Counted from the stretch's first letter, positions 16,420 through 34,413 are shown. The stretch: DNA of 39,163 nucleotides from a virus (IMGVR_UViG_2541047942_000002); one strand, 5' to 3'. The notes: generated from the letters alone by a model not told the origin. Made by a program: numbers and translations.

Positions 16420-16445
<26 letters not shown>

Positions 16446-16965
16446 TCAGCAACCCCGGTATCAGTTCATCCAGCGCGGCTGCTTTGTTCATGGCTTTGAT
16501 GATATCCCGTTTCAGGAAATCAACATGTCGGTTTTCCAGTTCCGGAAAACGCCGCTGCACCGACAGGGGGATCCCGTCGAGAATACTGGCAATTTCACCT
16601 GCGATCCGCGACAGCACGAAAGTACAGAATGCGGTTTCCACCACTTCAGTGGAGTCTCTGGCATTTTTCAGCTCCTGTGCGTCGGCCTGCGCACGCGTAA
16701 GTCGATGGCGTTCGTACTCAATAGTCCCTGGCTGGAGATCTGTCTCGCTGGCCTGCCGCAGTTCTTCAACTTCCCGGCGCAGCTTTTCGTTCTCAATTTC
16801 AGCATCCCTTTCGGCATACCATCTTATAACGGCGGCAGAGTCATAAAGCACCTCATTACCCTTGCCACCGCCTCGCAGAACGGGCATTCCCTGTTCCTGC
16901 CAGTTCTGAATGGTACGGATACTCGCACCGAAAATGTCAGCCAGCTGCTTTTTGTTGACTTCCAT
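16420..16965 (-). CDS. Nu1: terminase small subunit Nu1
   Basis: 181-aa ORF (MEVNKKQLADIFGASIRTIQNWQEQGMPVLRGGGKGNEVLYD...), lambda Nu1-like winged-helix N-terminus; immediately adjacent to cos. Confidence 0.95.
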
Positions 16966-17200
16966 TGTTCATTCCACGGCCAAAAACAGAGAAAGGAAAC
17001 GACAGAGGCCCAAAAGCTCGTTTTCAGCACCTGTCGTTTCCTTTCTTTTCAGGGGGTATTTTAAATAAAAACATTAAGTTACGACGAAGAAGAACGGAAA
17101 TGCCTTAAACCGGAAAATTTTCATAAATAGCGAAAACCCGCGAGGTCGCCGCCCCGTAACCTGTCGGATCGCCGGAAAGGACCCGCAAAATGATAATAAT
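16966..17200. other. cos: cos region: cosN 12-nt cohesive-end sequence AGGTCGCCGCCC (plus strand, ~17143-17154; reverse complement of lambda GGGCGGCGACCT) with cosB-like sequence toward Nu1 and lambda right-end-like sequence on the other side
   Basis: Direct read of 17143-17154; flanking CGTAACCTGTCGGATCGCCGGAAAGGACCCG is the reverse complement of the lambda right-end sequence as I recall it. Confidence 0.85.
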
Positions 17201-17353: not shown

Positions 17354-17548
17354 ATGTCAACGAAGAACAGAACCCGCAGAACAACAACCCGCAACATCCG
17401 CTTTCCTAACCAAATGATTGAACAAATTAACATCGCTCTTGATCAAAAAGGGTCCGGGAATTTCTCAGCCTGGGTCATTGAAGCCTGCCGCCGGAGACTA
17501 ACGTCAGAAAAGAGAGCATATACATCAATCCAGAGTGATGATGGATGA
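17354..17548 (+). CDS. hypothetical small basic protein (possible ribbon-helix-helix DNA-binding fold)
   Basis: 64-aa ATG-initiated ORF between cos and IS3; weak RBS; no recognised homolog. Confidence 0.3.
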   Translation: MSTKNRTRRTTTRNIRFPNQMIEQINIALDQKGSGNFSAWVIEACRRRLTSEKRAYTSIQSDDG

Positions 17549-17808
17549 ACATCCCGGTTTCTTGACCTTCCCTCCCTCCCCGCACAGAACTGGCGAGCGT
17601 GAGGGACCAATATGTGAGCCATAAATGCCTTATCTTCAGAAATGTAGTTGGTATCCGAATAGAACGATATTGTAAATTCACCTAAATACGAGGCATTGCT
17701 GTAGTTGAATTGCAGTACTGTATTAGCCTGACAGTGACAGAATACGATATTGACTCTGTCACTTGTGAAATGGTCAGATGATCCTACCCACGTAATATGG
17801 ACACAGGC

Positions 17809-18675
17809 CTAAGCGAGGTTCTTGTTTTCAAATTGTTCCGGACTGAGGCCGCCACACCAACTGTGCCGCCGCCACCGATTGTAATCACATTCGATATAAT
17901 TAAACACCGTTGCCCGCATTATTTCCCGGCTGATAAAGTGTTCTCCATGGATACATTCCACTTTCAGCGAATGAAAGAAGCTTTCCACGCAGGCATTATC
18001 GTAGCAGCAACCTTTTGCGCTCATACTTCCACGCAGATTATGCCGCTTCAGTTGCGCCTGATAATCTGCTGAACAGTACTGGCCTCCACGGTCCGTGTGA
18101 ACGATAACGTTCCGGGGCCTCTTACGCCGCCACAGCGCCATCTGCAGGGCATCGCAGGCCAGTTGCGCCGTCATGCGTGGCGACATTGACCAGCCAATAA
18201 CGGCACGTGACCACAGGTCAATGACCACTGCCAGATACAGCCAGCCTTCATCTGTACGTAAGTACGTGATGTCTCCTGCCCACTTCTGGTTCGGGCCACT
18301 GGCGTAAAAATCCTGCTCCAACAGATTTTCTGACACAGGCAGGCCGTGTGCGCGGTAGCTGACCGGGCTGAACTTCCGGGAGGCCTTTGCCCTCAGTCCC
18401 TGACGGCGCAGGCTTGCCGCCACGGTTTTTACGTTAAAGGGGTAACCCTGAGCACGCAGTTCATCCGTCAGGCGTGGGGCACCGTAACGCTGTTTTGACC
18501 GGGTAAAAGCCGCGAGGACAACGCTGTCGCAGTGTTGGCGGAACTGCTGACGCGTGCTTATCCTTGTCCGCCGCTGACACCACGTATACCAGCCGCTGCG
18601 GGCCACCCGGAGCACGCGGCACATTGCTTTGATGCTGAACTCAGCCTGATGTTTTTCAATAAAGACATACTTCAT
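17809..18675 (-). CDS. insF: IS3 transposase OrfB (DDE integrase core; normally made as an OrfAB frameshift fusion)
   Basis: 288-aa ORF ([30 protein letters not shown]...) recognisable as IS3 InsF. Confidence 0.9.
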
Positions 18676-18971
18676 TTCAGGCGCTTCGCGAAGTATGTCG
18701 CGGCCTTTTGGAGGATAGCCAGCTCTTCATCCCGTTCTGCCAGCTGGCGTTTGAGACGTGCAATCTCGGTAGACATCTCCAGTTCACGTTCAGAAGACGT
18801 CTGCTGATTTTGCTGTTTACTGCGCCAGTTGTAGAGTTGTGATTCATACAGGCTGAGTTCACGGGCTGCGGCAGTAACACCGATGCGTTCAGCAAGCTTC
18901 AGGGCTTCACTGCGAAATTCAGGCGAATGCTGTTTACGGGGTTTTTTACTGGTTGATACTGTTTTTGTCAT
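18672..18971 (-). CDS. insE: IS3 transposase OrfA (HTH)
   Basis: ORF trimmed to ATG at 18969-18971 ([31 protein letters not shown]...), 99 aa. Confidence 0.9.
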
Positions 18972-19059
18972 GTGAGTCACCTCTGACTGAGAGTTTACTC
19001 ACTTAGCCGCGTGTCCACTATTGCTGGGTAAGATCAAGAATGGTTAGCAGTTATGGTGA

Positions 19060-19266
19060 TCAGTCAACCACCAGGGAATAATCCTTCGTATTCTTATCGT
19101 GCTTTACTAACGCGGCCTCAATTGCCCTGAATGCTTCCAGAGATACTTGATGTTCTATACATGCAATTACAACATCCGGGTAACCCATCGAAATGGTGCT
19201 ATTAAGCATAGTTTTTACACGAACCTGCTCCTGGGAGGGGGCATCAATGTATTGATCTTTATGCAT
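19060..19266 (-). CDS. hypothetical protein (68 aa)
   Basis: ORF-track ORF ending 24 bp from the IS3 end; no recognised homolog. Confidence 0.35.
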
Positions 19267-19561
19267 TTTGTCGCTCCATTCGTTTGCTCTTCACTTGCGG
19301 CTAAAAATATAACGTCAAATCACTCAGCATGAAAGAGTGAAAGTTTCAGCGCGTTTCCCTTACATAATCTGTCGTTTGTATTCTCTTCAGGCATACCGGA
19401 AAGACTAGGTATTGTCACACAACCAATACCATCGACAATCGAGATTTATATCTATTCGGTAATGTTTAAATATAACAAAACCCCGTAAAAACGAGGTTTA
19501 TGGGTAATTTGTATTGTTGAATAGCATCTGATGAGAAATTGATGCTAATACTATAAACATA

Positions 19562-19735
19562 CTAGATTAAATCAATCTTGATATCATAGCTTTCAAGACC
19601 AGTCATTTTTTCCCGTGCAGTAAACTGGATACTGGTAACTTCTTTCCCGGTCTTTTTCTTAAGCTCAATGATTTTTTTTGTTATATATTCAGAAATATCT
19701 GCTTCTGTTTTTGTTTTTAACTCTTCAATGTTCAT
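19562..19735 (-). CDS. gnsB: GnsA/GnsB-family small protein
   Basis: 57-aa product from the second of two adjacent ATGs (MNIEELKTKTEADISEYITKKIIELKKKTGKEVTSIQFTAREKMTGLESYDIKIDLI) resembling GnsB; GAGG RBS upstream. Confidence 0.7.
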   Translation of the reverse strand: MNIEELKTKTEADISEYITKKIIELKKKTGKEVTSIQFTAREKMTGLESYDIKIDLI

Positions 19736-19907
19736 CATTTCCTCTTTTAGTCTGTTATGACTTTCTTGGTACACAGTAGTGTCAATTATATGGAGCAAAC
19801 GTATAAAAGATAAGATGAAACATCGCAATAATCAACATACGACGGTCTAAATTTCACACAAACAGATAAAGATGATTATCATTTATTATCAATGCATTAG
19901 AATCAAA

Positions 19908-20138
19908 TCAATTCAAGAGTCTCATTGCTGCTTCCAGAATTTCTTCTGAAGTTACATGTCGATCCGCTGCTACATAAATGACTTTATGATCTCCGGTCAG
20001 AGATGGAAACCCTGCAGCCATTACAGTGAGGTGTGTTGTTTCGCCATTTGGGTATTCACGCATGATGGTGTTAACTCCGGTCATCACTGGCACTACCATT
20101 GCTGGTTCAGAGTTAAAAAAAACTATTATTTTTTTCAT
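19908..20138 (-). CDS. hypothetical protein (76 aa)
   Basis: ORF-track ORF between gnsB and cspI; no recognised homolog. Confidence 0.35.
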   Translation of the reverse strand: MKKIIVFFNSEPAMVVPVMTGVNTIMREYPNGETTHLTVMAAGFPSLTGDHKVIYVAADRHVTSEEILEAAMRLLN

Positions 20139-20408
20139 ATGTTACCGTAATATGTGAGTATCCATCGACTAGACACTAAGCAAAAAAGCTCCCGAAGGAG
20201 CCTTCATTTTCACTTTCTTAAATCTAACGACAGATGGCTAACATTTAAGTATTGTGAAATATTATCAAATGTAATCATCATTGATTTACAAAAGATACAT
20301 TTTGCCCCGAAAGGATTTCTGTCAGAAACATCAAAAGATGATGTTCTATACTGAGAACCATGGCAACACGGGCATCTAAAGTGAATATGGTTTGTAATAT
20401 TTTCTACC

Positions 20409-20621
20409 TCAAAGTGCCACTACATGAACAGCTGCAGGGCCTTTAGGTCCGTTCTCAATACCAAATTCGACTTCCTGATTCTCAGTTAACGTTTTGAAAT
20501 CGTTGCTCTGAATAGCTGAGAAATGCACAAACACATCTTTGCTACCATCTTTCGGCGTGATGAAACCAAAACCTTTTTCAGGGTTAAACCATTTCACTAA
20601 ACCAGTCATTTTGTTAGACAT
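20409..20621 (-). CDS. cspI: cold-shock protein, CspA family
   Basis: 70-aa [45 protein letters not shown]... with RNP1/RNP2 motifs; long AT-rich upstream leader typical of csp genes. Confidence 0.85.
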
Positions 20622-20984
20622 TATTATTACCTTTTGAAGAAGTTAGCCCTTGGGCAGAATGGTCCGAAAAAAAATATCAGAGAGAAAAACCAACAAGGAA
20701 ATCTCAAGAGGTACAAATAATAAAATTATAACAATGACTGCTTCAGATAATTTTGTAACAAACCAGAACACCATTAACGCATGATTAACCAACCATAGCA
20801 AGGATTACTTTTGTAAAGAAAAACACACGAATGAAACAATAGCTTTATTTATTAATAAAACGTGTCATTCTGTCTAATGACCTTTTATCTTACCCTTAAG
20901 ATTTCAAGGATTTTGACTCATGGAAGAGTCCTTTTTATTTAAATTTCACATTCAGCGCTAAAAATAATCCGATTTAATATTAAT

Positions 20985-22012
<1,028 letters not shown>

Positions 22013-23073: not shown

Positions 23074-23355
23074 TGAGATTGTGGTGCTTTTTGTGGGAGT
23101 CATCCACTTACGCACTTTGTTTTGCCATGCCAGCAGTTAGCTTCTGCTGTAAAACTATTCATGCAGCAAACCTGCACTTCACCACAATGGTTAGCATACT
23201 TTTCCTGATTAAGATTTTGCCAAATATGCTAGCCATTGTTTCATGTATTGGACCTCCTTACTTTTTATTAAAGAGATCCAATATTCACTACTCTGTCCGT
23301 ATCTCTACTCAGGCATCAGCCTTCTTCGTTATCGTATACAGACGAGCGATGAATT

Positions 23356-23571
23356 TTAATCAGTAATGATGACATTTGCTGCTGCAGGACCTTTAGCACC
23401 ACTCTCTATAGAGAAGGTAACCTTTTGACCTTCAAATAAGGTTCGATAATTATCATTCTGAATCGCAGAAAAATGCACAAACACATCTTTACTACCATCA
23501 ACAGGAGAAATAAAGCCGAAACCTTTATCAGCGTTAAACCATTTTACTAAACCAGTCATTTTATTTGACAT
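23356..23571 (-). CDS. cspB: cold-shock protein, CspA family
   Basis: 71-aa [56 protein letters not shown]...; divergent from cspF as in Qin. Confidence 0.85.
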
Positions 23572-23871
23572 TCTACATTCCTTAACTTGAGCCTTTCGGC
23601 ATAAATGGTTTGCATAACAGAAACGACTTCGTACTTAATTGGAGAGACTCAAAGAAGGAATAAGTGAATAACACCTGAAATGAGAACTGCTTTAGTAAAC
23701 TACTTCGTATATCGTCTGTTCTTCAAACCGACGCAATCATTAACGCATAGTTGAACATATGAAGCAATGTTTATTTTAGACATCCAGCCGTCTTCAACCC
23801 CATCAAAAAACTATAGCTTTCTTCAGGAACGTGTGTATAGTGCGCCAAGTTATCAGTATTAAGGAATTTTT

Positions 23872-24505: not shown

Positions 24506-25258
24506 TTATCTCGTCACCTTCCTCAATTGCGCTTCCGCGTATGCTTCTTCCTGCCAGCACTTTGTTACCAGTTTACCAATGACGTCCGCATACCCCTTAT
24601 ACCACTGATAATCGGTCAGGTCTGGTACCAGCTTCTGGACATGACGTCGTGCCAGCGTGGTCGGTAAACGACTAAACCGGTTTCCATTACAACGCCCACA
24701 AATCTTATATACCGGTACGCCATGAAACCGGGTTCTTTTTTCATCCAGAACAATCCCTTTACCCTTACACCCTCTGCACGCTGTGCTGGCTTCGCCCTTA
24801 CCATGGCAATGCTGACATAGTTCCTTCACCCATTCTTCCTTGATTACAGATTCCCCGCGTCTGTAGTGTTTCACCACTTCGCGCAATACATTATAAAATC
24901 CCGTACCTGAACAATGCTCACAGCGAGCCTTACTTGCCGCAGACCTGGAGTAATCAGCAAAGGCAAAACTCACGAGGTAAGGAATAATCTGTAACCGGAT
25001 TTCTTCACTCAATTTGTTCAATGTCGGGTTATCCAGTGCCATCGCGTAATTTAGCAGGCCTTCAATCGCAAACTGAGGGTCCTGAACACCAACTTTTGCC
25101 AGAAATAAGGCCAACCCAAGTGGTGCTTTCGACTGCACCATCCCCTGCGCTGCCATTACATCCGTAATTGTTAAACAACCGGTGCCTGTCGCTGGAGCGT
25201 CATCGCTCAATTTTGGAGATTTTGGGGAGTAATATTTTGGTAAGGCTTCAAGGTTCAT
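24506..25258 (-). CDS. quuQ: late-gene antiterminator Q
   Basis: ORF trimmed to MNLEALPKYYSPKSPKLSDD... (250 aa); four CxxCxGxG-type motifs (CEHCSGTG, CQHCHGKG, CRGCKGKG, CGRCNGNR); located immediately upstream of pR'/tR'. Confidence 0.8.
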   Translation of the reverse strand: MNLEALPKYYSPKSPKLSDDAPATGTGCLTITDVMAAQGMVQSKAPLGLALFLAKVGVQDPQFAIEGLLNYAMALDNPTLNKLSEEIRLQIIPYLVSFAFADYSRSAASKARCEHCSGTGFYNVLREVVKHYRRGESVIKEEWVKELCQHCHGKGEASTACRGCKGKGIVLDEKRTRFHGVPVYKICGRCNGNRFSRLPTTLARRHVQKLVPDLTDYQWYKGYADVIGKLVTKCWQEEAYAEAQLRKVTR

Positions 25259-25271
25259 GCTCGTTCTCCAC

Positions 25272-26321
25272 TTACGCCAGTACGCCAATTGCCAGCGCGC
25301 GATCGATAAAACGAAATATCAGCTCCAGTTGGGAGCCATACTTATCTTCAAATGCCACTGTATCCGTATGCAGCTCGTTGTGATGCTTTCTGCACAAAGG
25401 CAACACAAAGAGATCATGTGCTTTTGTTCCCATTCCGCCCTGCCCGTGACCAATCAGATGATGCGGATCGTCGGCTGGCATACCGCAGCAAGCACACGGC
25501 TGTGTCTTAACCCAACGTGTGTATTTCTCCTTAACCCAGCGGCGACGTTTAGGCAGCTTCATGAAAGATTCCGGAGACTCTGGATCAACGGTGATGCTTA
25601 CCACCGTCTTTTCCTGTGGTGATTTTTGTTGCTGGTGGGCGTAAGGCAACGGTGCAAGATTTTTTGTGCGTTGTTTCAATATGCTGGTGGCGGTCTGCTC
25701 TCCCGGTACGATGTCGCTTTCGCGGTACACCGAGCAGATTTTTTCCGCTGGTAATCCCAGCGAACGACGCGATACAGCCTCAGGTAGTGCATCCACCACC
25801 TGATTGCAGACCGCCCACCAGGATAATTCAGCCAAAGATAATTCCCGCTCCTGCGTACCGCTTATTGCGTGACGGATGACGTCAATCACCCATGCTGTCA
25901 GATTTTGTTGAGCAAGCAGCTCCAGTGATTCCGATGTCTGGTCACGCAGTTGGTTGTCGCAGTGCCAGCACAACACCATTGCGCCGGTACCATAACGGTG
26001 AATGACTGTTTCAGTGTGATGGTAATCGCCATTAGGCCACTGGCAGGATGTAACATGACGTAATAGCCAGTCGGACAATGCGCCAACGCCGCCAGCAGCA
26101 CGAATCACCCGTTCGTTACTAAAAAACGGCAGCAATGTTTTGTCTTCCGCCAGCGGCTGGCGAACGGCAGGAACGACTCCGGATGGCAGATTACGCATGC
26201 TTTTTGGTTCCGGTTCCACCAGCACTCGAGGATTATGAAATATCTGTATGGATTCACGGCCCGGCTTAAGGACCACCAGCCCAAGCTCAGGCACCAGAAC
26301 AGGTCTAAGTAATACCCGCAC
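25272..26321 (-). CDS. ydfU: nin-region protein with C-terminal HNH-like zinc-finger nuclease motif
   Basis: 349-aa product from a GTG at ~26319-26321 preceded by GGAGG; C-terminal CACCG...DPHHLIGHG...CRKHHNELH motif. Confidence 0.7.
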   Translation of the reverse strand: MRVLLRPVLVPELGLVVLKPGRESIQIFHNPRVLVEPEPKSMRNLPSGVVPAVRQPLAEDKTLLPFFSNERVIRAAGGVGALSDWLLRHVTSCQWPNGDYHHTETVIHRYGTGAMVLCWHCDNQLRDQTSESLELLAQQNLTAWVIDVIRHAISGTQERELSLAELSWWAVCNQVVDALPEAVSRRSLGLPAEKICSVYRESDIVPGEQTATSILKQRTKNLAPLPYAHQQQKSPQEKTVVSITVDPESPESFMKLPKRRRWVKEKYTRWVKTQPCACCGMPADDPHHLIGHGQGGMGTKAHDLFVLPLCRKHHNELHTDTVAFEDKYGSQLELIFRFIDRALAIGVLA

Positions 26322-26322
26322 G

Positions 26323-26601
26323 TTACCTCCAGATCCGTTGCTGGAAAGTGCGGGACGCACGTGGTGGGCGTTCGGAATAAGGCAGCCTGACAGAGATTAT
26401 CCAGTGCCGATAGTCGAGACTGAGAGCTTTCTTAACCTCGAACCCGCGCCTGCGGTAAGAATGAATCAGCCATTCGGCCTGTTCTGCAGTGCATGGAGGG
26501 TGCTGGAACCATTCAGACTTGAATGCGTGAGAATACCGCCCGTGCGTGCAGGCAAGAACGGGCGAATTATCAGAATTGTAATATTTTGCGTTGCGTGCCA
26601 T
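26323..26601 (-). CDS. hypothetical protein (92 aa), tightly coupled upstream of ydfU
   Basis: ORF-track ORF ending 2 nt before the proposed ydfU start; no recognised homolog. Confidence 0.35.
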   Translation of the reverse strand: MARNAKYYNSDNSPVLACTHGRYSHAFKSEWFQHPPCTAEQAEWLIHSYRRRGFEVKKALSLDYRHWIISVRLPYSERPPRASRTFQQRIWR

Positions 26602-26667
26602 CGGTTTTCTCCGGTGGCACGGTGTTACTCAGCGGGAGTTCAGCCCCGCGCAAGATTGTAGATGAGT

Positions 26668-26919
26668 TTATTCTCCTGAAAAAGCAGAAAAGCCAGCTTT
26701 TATTCCGATCTCTTTCAATGCCTGTAATGAAGTGACAAACTCACCTTCGCGCAAGATAAATCCGTCCGTGACCCGAGCATCCACAAAATTAATTAACGCA
26801 GCCCCATTCTTTCGCAAACACATAATGCGGTAATGACTAACAAGATTTCCATTTTCAACGCACACAGCATAGAGGCCATCTTCACAAAAAATTTTACGCA
26901 GTTCTTCGATGTTCATCAT
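26668..26919 (-). CDS. rem: small prophage protein Rem
   Basis: 83-aa ORF MMNIEELRKIFCEDGLYAVCVENGNLVSHYRIMCLRKNGAALINF..., in the position rem occupies in Qin. Confidence 0.7.
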   Translation of the reverse strand: MMNIEELRKIFCEDGLYAVCVENGNLVSHYRIMCLRKNGAALINFVDARVTDGFILREGEFVTSLQALKEIGIKAGFSAFSGE

Positions 26920-29190: not shown

Positions 29191-30531
29191 TCAATCTATT
29201 TTATCGGGATCAGGCTTCTTTTTAGGTAACTTCGGGGGCTTAACTTGCTGATGACTTTGCGTTCGGCGCGTAAGCCAGGGATGGTCAGCTTTAGATTTAA
29301 CATAGTATTTTGAGCGTAAATCAATACGGGCATTATCCACTCGTTCATGGACACTCTTTTCATCATCCAGTGGTATAGGCTCCGGGCCATCAACATACTT
29401 TTCCCAGCCCAGCGCTTTCCCGTCATACAGAACGTTAATTTCACCGTCAAAGTTCTCACATACAGTAACAACCGAATGCCTAAGTCGATATCCCCGGCCC
29501 TCACTGCGTACCTGAAACGCACTGCTTTTGTACTGGAAAGTGAGATTTTTAGACAGAACGCGCTTCGCCTGTAGGCTGAAGATATAACCCAGTTCCTCTT
29601 CAGAATGGTGCACATCAAGATGAGCATTATCAGTAGTACGAGGCGACGTAGCGAACCGGTTGTTATAGGCTTCAATAAAGGTCGGCAACCATGCATTTGC
29701 TGTTTCAATATCACTGATATTCTGAAGCCGCATTTCTTTGACCAGCCTGTCCTGTAGTGTCTGATTGGCGCGCTCTACCCGCCCTTTTGCCTGCGGGCTG
29801 TTGGCATGGATTGGCTCGATGCCCTGTGTCTTTATCGCACGAGTGAACTGGGTCAGCTCACCTTCCCGCTCTGGGTTATTTACCCTGAATATACTGTGTC
29901 TATCAGAGTAGAGAGCGAGCGGTACGCCATGATCATTAAGGTAACCCCGGAGGGTTTCCATGTAAGCCCGGGTTGTTTCAGCAGGCACAAAACGCAACGC
30001 CATCAACGCACTGGTGGCATCATCAATGAAAACGATCAGTGTACATCTGGGGCCTCGATTTTCAAACCAGTCATGAGGTGAGCCATCAATCTGGATCAGT
30101 TCACCGTAAGATGGTCGTCGCATGCGGCGTTGATATATACGGGCAATTTTACGACGGCGTTCACGCCATAACCCCTCTTCTATCATCCACTTTCTGAGAG
30201 TTTCAACGGATAAAGATAAACCGTGTATCTCGCGCAATTTTTCGCACGCAAACGTAGGTCCAAAATCAGCGTAACGGCCTTTGAGGAGTGAAATTACTGT
30301 TGCTCTGAATTCAGTAGAAAAGGAATTATTAGGATGCTTTCCACGTCGGTGGGAAACCAGACCAGAAGGCCCTTCATTTCTATACCGTTGCACCAGACGT
30401 TTAACCTGCCGAATAGAAATGCCAATGCGTGCCGCAGCTTGTTCCTGAGTAATATGTCGATTAATTGACTCCTGAATAATCTGAAGTCGGTGGAGTTCCT
30501 TATGACTCATCGTAACAGTCTCTTTGATCAT
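29191..30531 (-). CDS. DDE transposase of the retroviral-integrase (rve) superfamily, IS481/IS21-IstA-like, with N-terminal HTH
   Basis: 446-aa ORF with HTH-like N-terminus and an rve-type catalytic core (QIDGSPHDW ... LALYSDRHSIF ... SPQAKGRVERANQTLQD); element ends not resolved. Confidence 0.8.
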   Translation of the reverse strand: MIKETVTMSHKELHRLQIIQESINRHITQEQAAARIGISIRQVKRLVQRYRNEGPSGLVSHRRGKHPNNSFSTEFRATVISLLKGRYADFGPTFACEKLREIHGLSLSVETLRKWMIEEGLWRERRRKIARIYQRRMRRPSYGELIQIDGSPHDWFENRGPRCTLIVFIDDATSALMALRFVPAETTRAYMETLRGYLNDHGVPLALYSDRHSIFRVNNPEREGELTQFTRAIKTQGIEPIHANSPQAKGRVERANQTLQDRLVKEMRLQNISDIETANAWLPTFIEAYNNRFATSPRTTDNAHLDVHHSEEELGYIFSLQAKRVLSKNLTFQYKSSAFQVRSEGRGYRLRHSVVTVCENFDGEINVLYDGKALGWEKYVDGPEPIPLDDEKSVHERVDNARIDLRSKYYVKSKADHPWLTRRTQSHQQVKPPKLPKKKPDPDKID

Positions 30532-34355: not shown

Positions 34356-34413
34356 TTTCTGGTGACGTTTGGCGGTATCAGTTTTACTCCGTGACTGCTC
34401 TGCCGCCCTTTTT
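34356..34413 (+). ncRNA. dicF: DicF small regulatory RNA (ftsZ-targeting) with its intrinsic terminator
   Basis: Sequence TTTCTGGTGACGTTTGGCGGTATCAGTTTTACTCCGTGACTGCTCTGCCGCCCTTTTT matches DicF as I recall it; GGCGG...CCGCC stem plus U-tract; located between the ydfB/C-like ORF and dicB. Confidence 0.8.

Follow-up and report, generated by a model that had tools for sequence, protein, structure and literature searches.

An intact IS3 copy in the non-coding spacer between the lysis genes and cos of a lambda/Qin-type prophage

The prophage and the spacer occupied by IS3

The window (the whole stretch of 39,163 nucleotides analysed here) belongs to a lambda/Qin-type prophage that has Q, the lysis genes, an integrase and a complete head-tail module, and is nearly colinear with the annotated prophages of VG1046-3E9 and STEC276. 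On the minus strand the order is Q, cspB, cspF, the holin gene essD, ydfR, the endolysin gene rrrQ, the spanin gene rzpQ, cspI, ymcF, ynfN, gnsB, a ybcW-like gene, IS3, then (past ylcI, which lies on the plus strand) cosN, Nu1 and terminase A (Table 1). Complete lambda-type head and tail genes follow terminase A as far as J, which the end of the window truncates. This is the layout of a lambdoid late operon, with Q, the lysis genes, cosN and Nu1 to J sharing the minus strand. Further right, the window carries a dicA/dicC immunity region, DicF, an O-like replication gene, an exonuclease gene and the integrase gene; the repressor, of DicA type, lacks an evident autocleavage domain. The preliminary description had placed IS3 in the minus-strand late operon, between the lysis and accessory genes and cos/Nu1, and both the gene order and the cosN match agree with this position.

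On the late transcript, the stop codon of the ybcW-like gene is found 23 bp upstream of IS3 (at its IRL end) and cosN 625 bp downstream of the element. The flanks of IS3 share homology with lambda 47629-48257 (88% identity), at the right end of the phage genome; mapped onto lambda, the insertion falls at about position 47,966, some 22 bp past the lambdap79 stop codon, with about 536 bp left to the right cohesive end. IS3 is thus intergenic: it sits in a non-coding, AT-rich spacer between convergent small genes and interrupts none. A gene split at the site was considered and rejected, as only ORFs of 36-39 aa with TTG starts span the empty form and PGAP annotates nothing there; the same goes for a structured RNA, for which Rfam gave no match at the site, its matches in the window being two cspA-type leaders and DicF.

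Some further features of this region deserve mention. Beside the insertion point, at 17729-17764, there is an imperfect inverted repeat, ACAGTGACAGA-N13-TCTGTCACTTGT, for which a hairpin is predicted on both strands. Phage lambda has nothing equivalent to the part of the spacer at 17564-17653 (about 90 bp, next to ylcI), while the parts that flank it are 96% and 81% identical; judged by this alignment, it is a small mosaic replacement. The cspA-type thermoregulator leaders lie on the minus strand at 20363-20768, before cspI (110.6 bits), and at 23340-23732, before cspB (158.8 bits), and the DicF sRNA at 34357-34408 on the plus strand (76.7 bits). Leaders and DicF are typical Qin-type cargo, within and beside the late operon.

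Table 1. Features of the window around IS3, and IS3 junctions in related prophages of other genomes (junction rows in the coordinates of the emptied window)
Feature	Position	Strand or orientation	Remarks
Nu1, terminase small subunit	16420..16965	minus	first morphogenesis gene downstream of IS3
cosN 12-mer GGGCGGCGACCT (minus-strand letters)	17143..17154	minus	exact match
YlcI/YnfO-family (DUF3950) gene	17354..17548	plus	convergent with the late operon; undisrupted
Left AGA of 3-bp target-site duplication	17776..17778		
IRR, right-end inverted repeat	17779..17817		begins TGATCCTACCCACGTAATATGGACAC..., terminal TG; alignment to other end
orfB (InsF), 288 aa	17809..18675	minus	DDE/RNase-H-fold catalytic domain; Pfam rve E = 5e-28, rve_2 E = 5e-22, HTH_21
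orfA (InsE), 99 aa	18672..18971	minus	ATG at 18971; helix-turn-helix DNA-binding protein; Pfam HTH_Tnp_1 E = 5e-10
A-AAA-G slippery site	18709-18705	minus	predicted programmed -1 frameshift; translation and PGAP annotation
IRL, left-end inverted repeat	18998..19036		reverse complement TGATCTTACCCAGCAATAGTGGACAC...; alignment to other end
Right AGA of 3-bp target-site duplication	19037..19039		
ybcW-like gene, 68 aa, lambdap79 homologue	19060..19266	minus	PHROG 657 E = 2e-47; undisrupted
Q antiterminator gene, ydfT/quuQ type	24506..25288	minus	Pfam Antiterm E = 4e-54; PGAP
IS3 of A30	17669	window orientation	cos-side deletion
IS3 of REL606 (E. coli B), ATCC 8739, ATCC 11303, others	17676	opposite orientation	deletion into J
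IS3 of STEC276	17693-95	window orientation	GCA duplication; 83 bp from window site
IS3 of XH988	17713-15	window orientation	CAG duplication
IS3 of PD7	17743	opposite orientation	with deletion
IS3 of GB089, 09-00049, OkiPb01715	about 17774	window orientation	GTT; DLP12-type prophage, another chromosomal locus
IS3 of window and VG1046-3E9	17776-78	window orientation	AGA duplication
IS3 of WCHEC050613	17790/17929	opposite orientation	
IS3 of B18271	17800-02	window orientation	CAG/TAG
IS3 of EC21Z-063	17802-04	opposite orientation	GTC duplication
IS3 of HUE1 group	17929	opposite orientation	with deletion

An intact IS3 and its empty site

The element occupies positions 17779-19036 (1258 bp) and carries its transposase genes on the minus strand; it is therefore co-directional with late transcription, and the transcript would enter at IRL and exit at IRR. 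In plus-strand letters it begins with TGATCCTACCCAC... (or TGATCCTACCCACGTAATATGGACAC...) and finishes with ...GGGTAAGATCA (or ...GTGTCCACTATTGCTGGGTAAGATCA). Its termini are TG...CA, and its ends are imperfect inverted repeats, in which 28 of the first 39 positions agree when TGATCCTACCCAC... is aligned directly with TGATCTTACCCAG...; an automated repeat search, which required an exact seed of 9 nt, missed them because they are too imperfect. Both orfA and orfB are intact and overlap at ATGA, orfB being in the -1 phase. A -1 shift at AAAAG would yield, by computed translation, an OrfAB protein of 387 aa free of stop codons, and PGAP annotates the identical copy in VG1046-3E9 as 'IS3-like element IS3 family transposase, programmed frameshift', with a joined CDS.

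Taking IS3A of E. coli K-12 MG1655 (insE1/insF1) as the reference, identity is 100% over 1255 bp, and ORFs, frameshift site, inverted repeats and the length of the target duplication (3 bp) are the same. IS3A as annotated lacks the terminal 3 bp at the IRL end, whereas the copy in the window has the full 1258 bp; apart from those 3 bp, location alone sets the two apart. Copies at least 99% identical to that of the window are present in more than 4,000 records. Every hallmark of IS3 that a sequence can reveal is therefore found here (length and identity, ends, ORFs and slippery site, domains, 3-bp duplication), and on these features the element is a member of IS3 (IS3 family, IS3 group) and no variant of it. 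The copy is canonical and intact, and probably still active. The preliminary description, which had reported a complete 1258-bp IS3 with both transposase ORFs, was exact in boundaries and length.

The same description had proposed a simple transposition event with a clean duplication of AGA. We reconstructed the empty site by removing IS3 and one AGA. At least 22 complete E. coli genomes contain the resulting 406 bp from end to end without a mismatch (100% identity) and carry AGA there once; at a coverage of 80% or more, the number is 1,959 genomes. Deleting the element hence restores a sequence that occurs naturally in other genomes, and exact alignment, which could have spoken against the IS ends or the duplication, upheld both. 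One could argue that a match of 3 bp is expected at random in 1 of 64 cases, and that several related IS3 copies nearby have no duplications and border deletions, so that the AGA repeats would be fortuitous and IS3 would have come through recombination or a larger rearrangement. However, the empty site is decisive in telling the duplication from a 1-in-64 coincidence, and the prophage is colinear with its relatives on either side of IS3. We consider an arrival by rearrangement next to impossible, and already refuted by the alignment of the empty site.

Among 5,426 complete E. coli genomes, the exact junction of the window is found in one, VG1046-3E9, whose prophage matches window positions 1-26658 (26.6 kb) with 99.989% identity. 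This insertion is in that sense already known, since the same junction is annotated by PGAP in the RefSeq genome of VG1046-3E9. The perfect duplication, the identity of the copy with that of K-12 and the presence of the junction in a single genome argue for a recent and lineage-specific insertion, and its rarity makes the junction usable as a lineage marker. Identity between VG1046-3E9 and the window stops at window position 26658, where VG1046-3E9 carries an IS1A (locus 29259-30012); beyond it, the early region of the prophage has been replaced by chromosomal genes (rspA side). It follows that this prophage and that of the window diverged after the insertion of IS3.

As to how the element arrived, a single copy-out-paste-in transposition through a circular intermediate would be the route expected for the family; IS3 circles have been reported in K-12 (bioRxiv 10.1101/2024.07.17.603846). 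The circle would then have entered the AT-rich spacer of the lambda/Qin-type prophage, duplicating AGA.

Late transcription across the element

IS elements, IS3 included, were first discovered as polar insertions, and the preliminary description had suggested that this one may be polar. Here IS3 lies between the lysis genes and Nu1 on a single late transcription path, so that a polar element would stop or strongly attenuate transcription from pR' before cos/Nu1, and the host would lyse releasing few or no virions. Also, ribosomes reach orfB only by way of a rare frameshift, which would leave a long ribosome-free RNA; the roughly 870 nt of largely untranslated orfB RNA could be a substrate for Rho, and a partial polar effect on the downstream genes may exist. 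A full IS3 is found in none of 50,697 phage records, a count that can be held in favour of polarity and that leaves no natural virion-derived example for or against tolerance. IS3 adds 1.26 kb to the packaged length of the genome, of which the window is a part.

Several points stand against a polar IS3. Lambda Q suppresses polarity, a result reportedly established by Forbes and Herskowitz in 1982 (among the references of PMC12360218). The minus strand of IS3 contains no terminator-like site in a consensus scan for intrinsic terminators. Moreover, the late transcript would already have to read past terminator-like hairpins on the minus strand upstream of IS3 (23074-23055 and 19499-19478), which means that, even in relatives free of the IS, a polymerase that reaches Nu1 from pR' must be termination-resistant. 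Indeed, RNA polymerase loaded with Q runs past pause sites and terminators for long distances (PMC9388147), and Q complexes are likely to be Rho-resistant too, although this still needs validation (review, PMC12360218). In the literature on IS3 polarity our search found nothing specific. Polarity on the morphogenesis genes is without support and disfavoured by inference, and we regard strong polarity as unlikely.

Most probably, the late transcript instead continues across IS3 and the head and tail genes are expressed almost or entirely as before, because the late operon would be transcribed by a Q-modified, termination-resistant RNA polymerase; phages of this type need Q for late transcription, and a Q gene is present here. 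We infer this read-through from the biology of lambda Q, and the neutrality of the insertion likewise; the Q of this prophage is of the Qin/ydfT type and not Q-lambda itself. The situation resembles the classical polar IS insertions and their suppression by N and Q in that an IS lies in a long phage operon transcribed by an antiterminated polymerase, and it differs from the classical lambda cases in that IS3 is intergenic and Q is Qin-type. Under this reading the modified polymerase would pass IS3, and expression of the head and tail genes would be little changed or unchanged. For annotation purposes, the late region of the prophage would have to be read as contiguous across IS3. Just downstream of Q, on the minus strand, a promoter-like TTTGCA-18-TAAAAT (24475-24446) is followed by a GC-rich palindromic hairpin of 10 bp (24400-24377), an arrangement resembling pR'/tR'.

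IS3 has also been reported to activate adjacent genes, and its own transcription exits here toward ylcI, cos and Nu1. Together with weak promoter-like hexamers on the minus strand near IRR (18064-18037 and 17947-17918), this could make the element a mobile promoter, in which orfB read-out or a hybrid promoter at IRR would drive transcription antisense to ylcI and into Nu1/A in the lysogen, with a selectable phenotype. However, promoter-like matches are about as frequent as in shuffled sequence (nine found versus 7.8 expected), and related insertions occur in both orientations, so that no orientation-dependent selection is apparent. A role as mobile promoter is in our view very improbable.

We therefore hold with considerable confidence that the locus carries a canonical, intact IS3 that inserted recently and simply into a non-coding spacer, hit no gene, and is probably read through by Q-modified polymerase. 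As an event it is ordinary: a textbook copy of IS3, that matters little as an individual feature.

Recurrent insertions in the spacer and the decay of the prophage

The spacer has received IS3 more than once. Other E. coli genomes show 9-10 distinct IS3 junctions within 136 bp (17669-17804 of the emptied window, that is, window positions 17669-17778 plus 19040-19066, between the ybcW-like gene and ylcI), in both orientations and with differing duplications (Table 1). Those of STEC276, XH988, B18271, EC21Z-063 and the GB089 group are, like that of the window, simple insertions with 3-bp duplications, from -83 to +26 bp of the window site, but they are independent events, at other nucleotides and in either orientation relative to the IS3 of the window.

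Three possible regularities of these insertions were considered and discarded. The first seven related copies all had the orientation of the window, an apparent bias that proved to be an artefact of the query, since a query with the IS inverted added 20 genomes and revealed both orientations. A target resembling the ends of IS3, as used by some elements of the IS3 and IS30 families, gave best matches of 13/25 and 9/15, values that 80-87% of shuffled sequences reach. And the duplicated triplets (AGA, GCA, CAG, GTC, GTT, AAA and AGG) have no common motif.

Further independent IS3 insertions are spread over the window equivalent of 19478-22012: two sites are in ynfN, at least three in rzpQ, and others in rrrQ, the cspI-rzpQ spacer, the hairpin that follows gnsB and the DNA downstream of a DUF1398 gene. 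IS3 is also found in ynfO. Across genomes, IS3 copies abound between the lysis genes and cos. In STEC276, an IS21 (istA/istB, locus 24714-26683) sits between rrrQ and ydfR (window 22012/22009) in addition to the prophage's own IS3, which shows that one late region can hold multiple IS insertions.

As a control, we searched for IS3 in either orientation between 380-bp flanks taken from the portal/protease genes. These flanks are present in 3,249 genomes, and none of them has IS3 in the head-gene zone of about 3.8 kb that this search covers, versus 28 of the 1,959 genomes recovered with the spacer query (nominal Fisher p ~1e-12, the genomes not being independent). An earlier control at the cspI-rzpQ spacer was confounded, as pieces up to 1.5 kb apart were joined and the same IS3 copies were counted again; that search also exposed the copies in rzpQ and rrrQ. 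GC content is 39% in the 136-bp core, 36% in the stretch from the ybcW-like gene to cspI and 59% in the head zone.

This clustering suggests, without amounting to a formal result, either a regional preference of IS3 or a greater tolerance to insertion and a long residence of the region. We think it plausible, at somewhat less than even odds, that IS3 lands preferentially in the AT-rich lysis-to-cos stretch of lambda/Qin/DLP12-type prophages, most of all in the 136-bp spacer. Alternatively, the clusters could have arisen with no target preference at all, if insertions are neutral and Qin-type remnants have long been resident in E. coli lineages: IS3 is also found in rzpQ, rrrQ, ynfN, ynfO and the cspI-rzpQ spacer, Qin-type late-region remnants are inherited vertically in many lineages, and the genomes of the collection are not independent. 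Yet the host can equally do without the head genes, which more genomes contain, and these carry no IS3 in the control; besides, the junctions within 136 bp are distinct, and IS3 transposes rarely, contributing 10 of the 758 insertions that arose in mutation-accumulation lines, where its target preference is described as uncharacterised (PMC5009759). A purely neutral origin of the clusters thus seems plausible to us, somewhat short of an even chance. In the literature our search found nothing specific on Qin-type prophages as an IS3 hot spot.

Whatever brings IS3 to the spacer, what happens next to it is visible in several relatives. In REL606 and other strains of E. coli B type, PD7, A30 and HUE1, everything from cos through the tail genes has been lost in deletions that border an IS3 lying between a few and 110 bp away. 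Copies of IS3 within or next to the spacer that have no target duplication and border deletions of cos and the head and tail genes are seen in REL606, PD7, A30, HUE1 and S43. Because they border these deletions, IS3 copies mark where Qin-type prophage remnants end, also in E. coli B. The IS3 of the REL606 type lies in the same spacer of the same type of prophage, 100 bp from the insertion of the window, but it has the opposite orientation and no duplication, and the spacer, cos, head and tail genes are deleted into J, whereas in the window the insertion is simple and everything is intact.

A more realistic long-term effect of IS3 at this site would therefore be that of a seed for IS-adjacent deletions that strip the prophage of its morphogenesis genes, as in these relatives. 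In the scenario we propose, IS3 would first insert and later seed the adjacent deletions. If the landing-zone reading is true, IS3 would be the recurrent first step leading from an intact lambdoid prophage to a remnant devoid of head and tail, such as that of E. coli B, and the window would catch this first step before any deletion. Should the pattern hold, a specific IS would be tied to a specific and repeatable route of prophage domestication in E. coli.

A second transposase-like gene, which may belong to another IS that damaged the prophage, is found in the early region of the window, between flxA/ydfV and a Ren-like gene. It is an ORF of 446 aa on the minus strand (29191-30531) with HTH domains and a weak rve_3 match, assigned to PHROG 8463 'transposase' (E = 4e-137). 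In the near-identical prophage of STEC276, PGAP annotates two separate features over this stretch, 'ydfW' and a partial ISEsa1 (IS1202-like) transposase.
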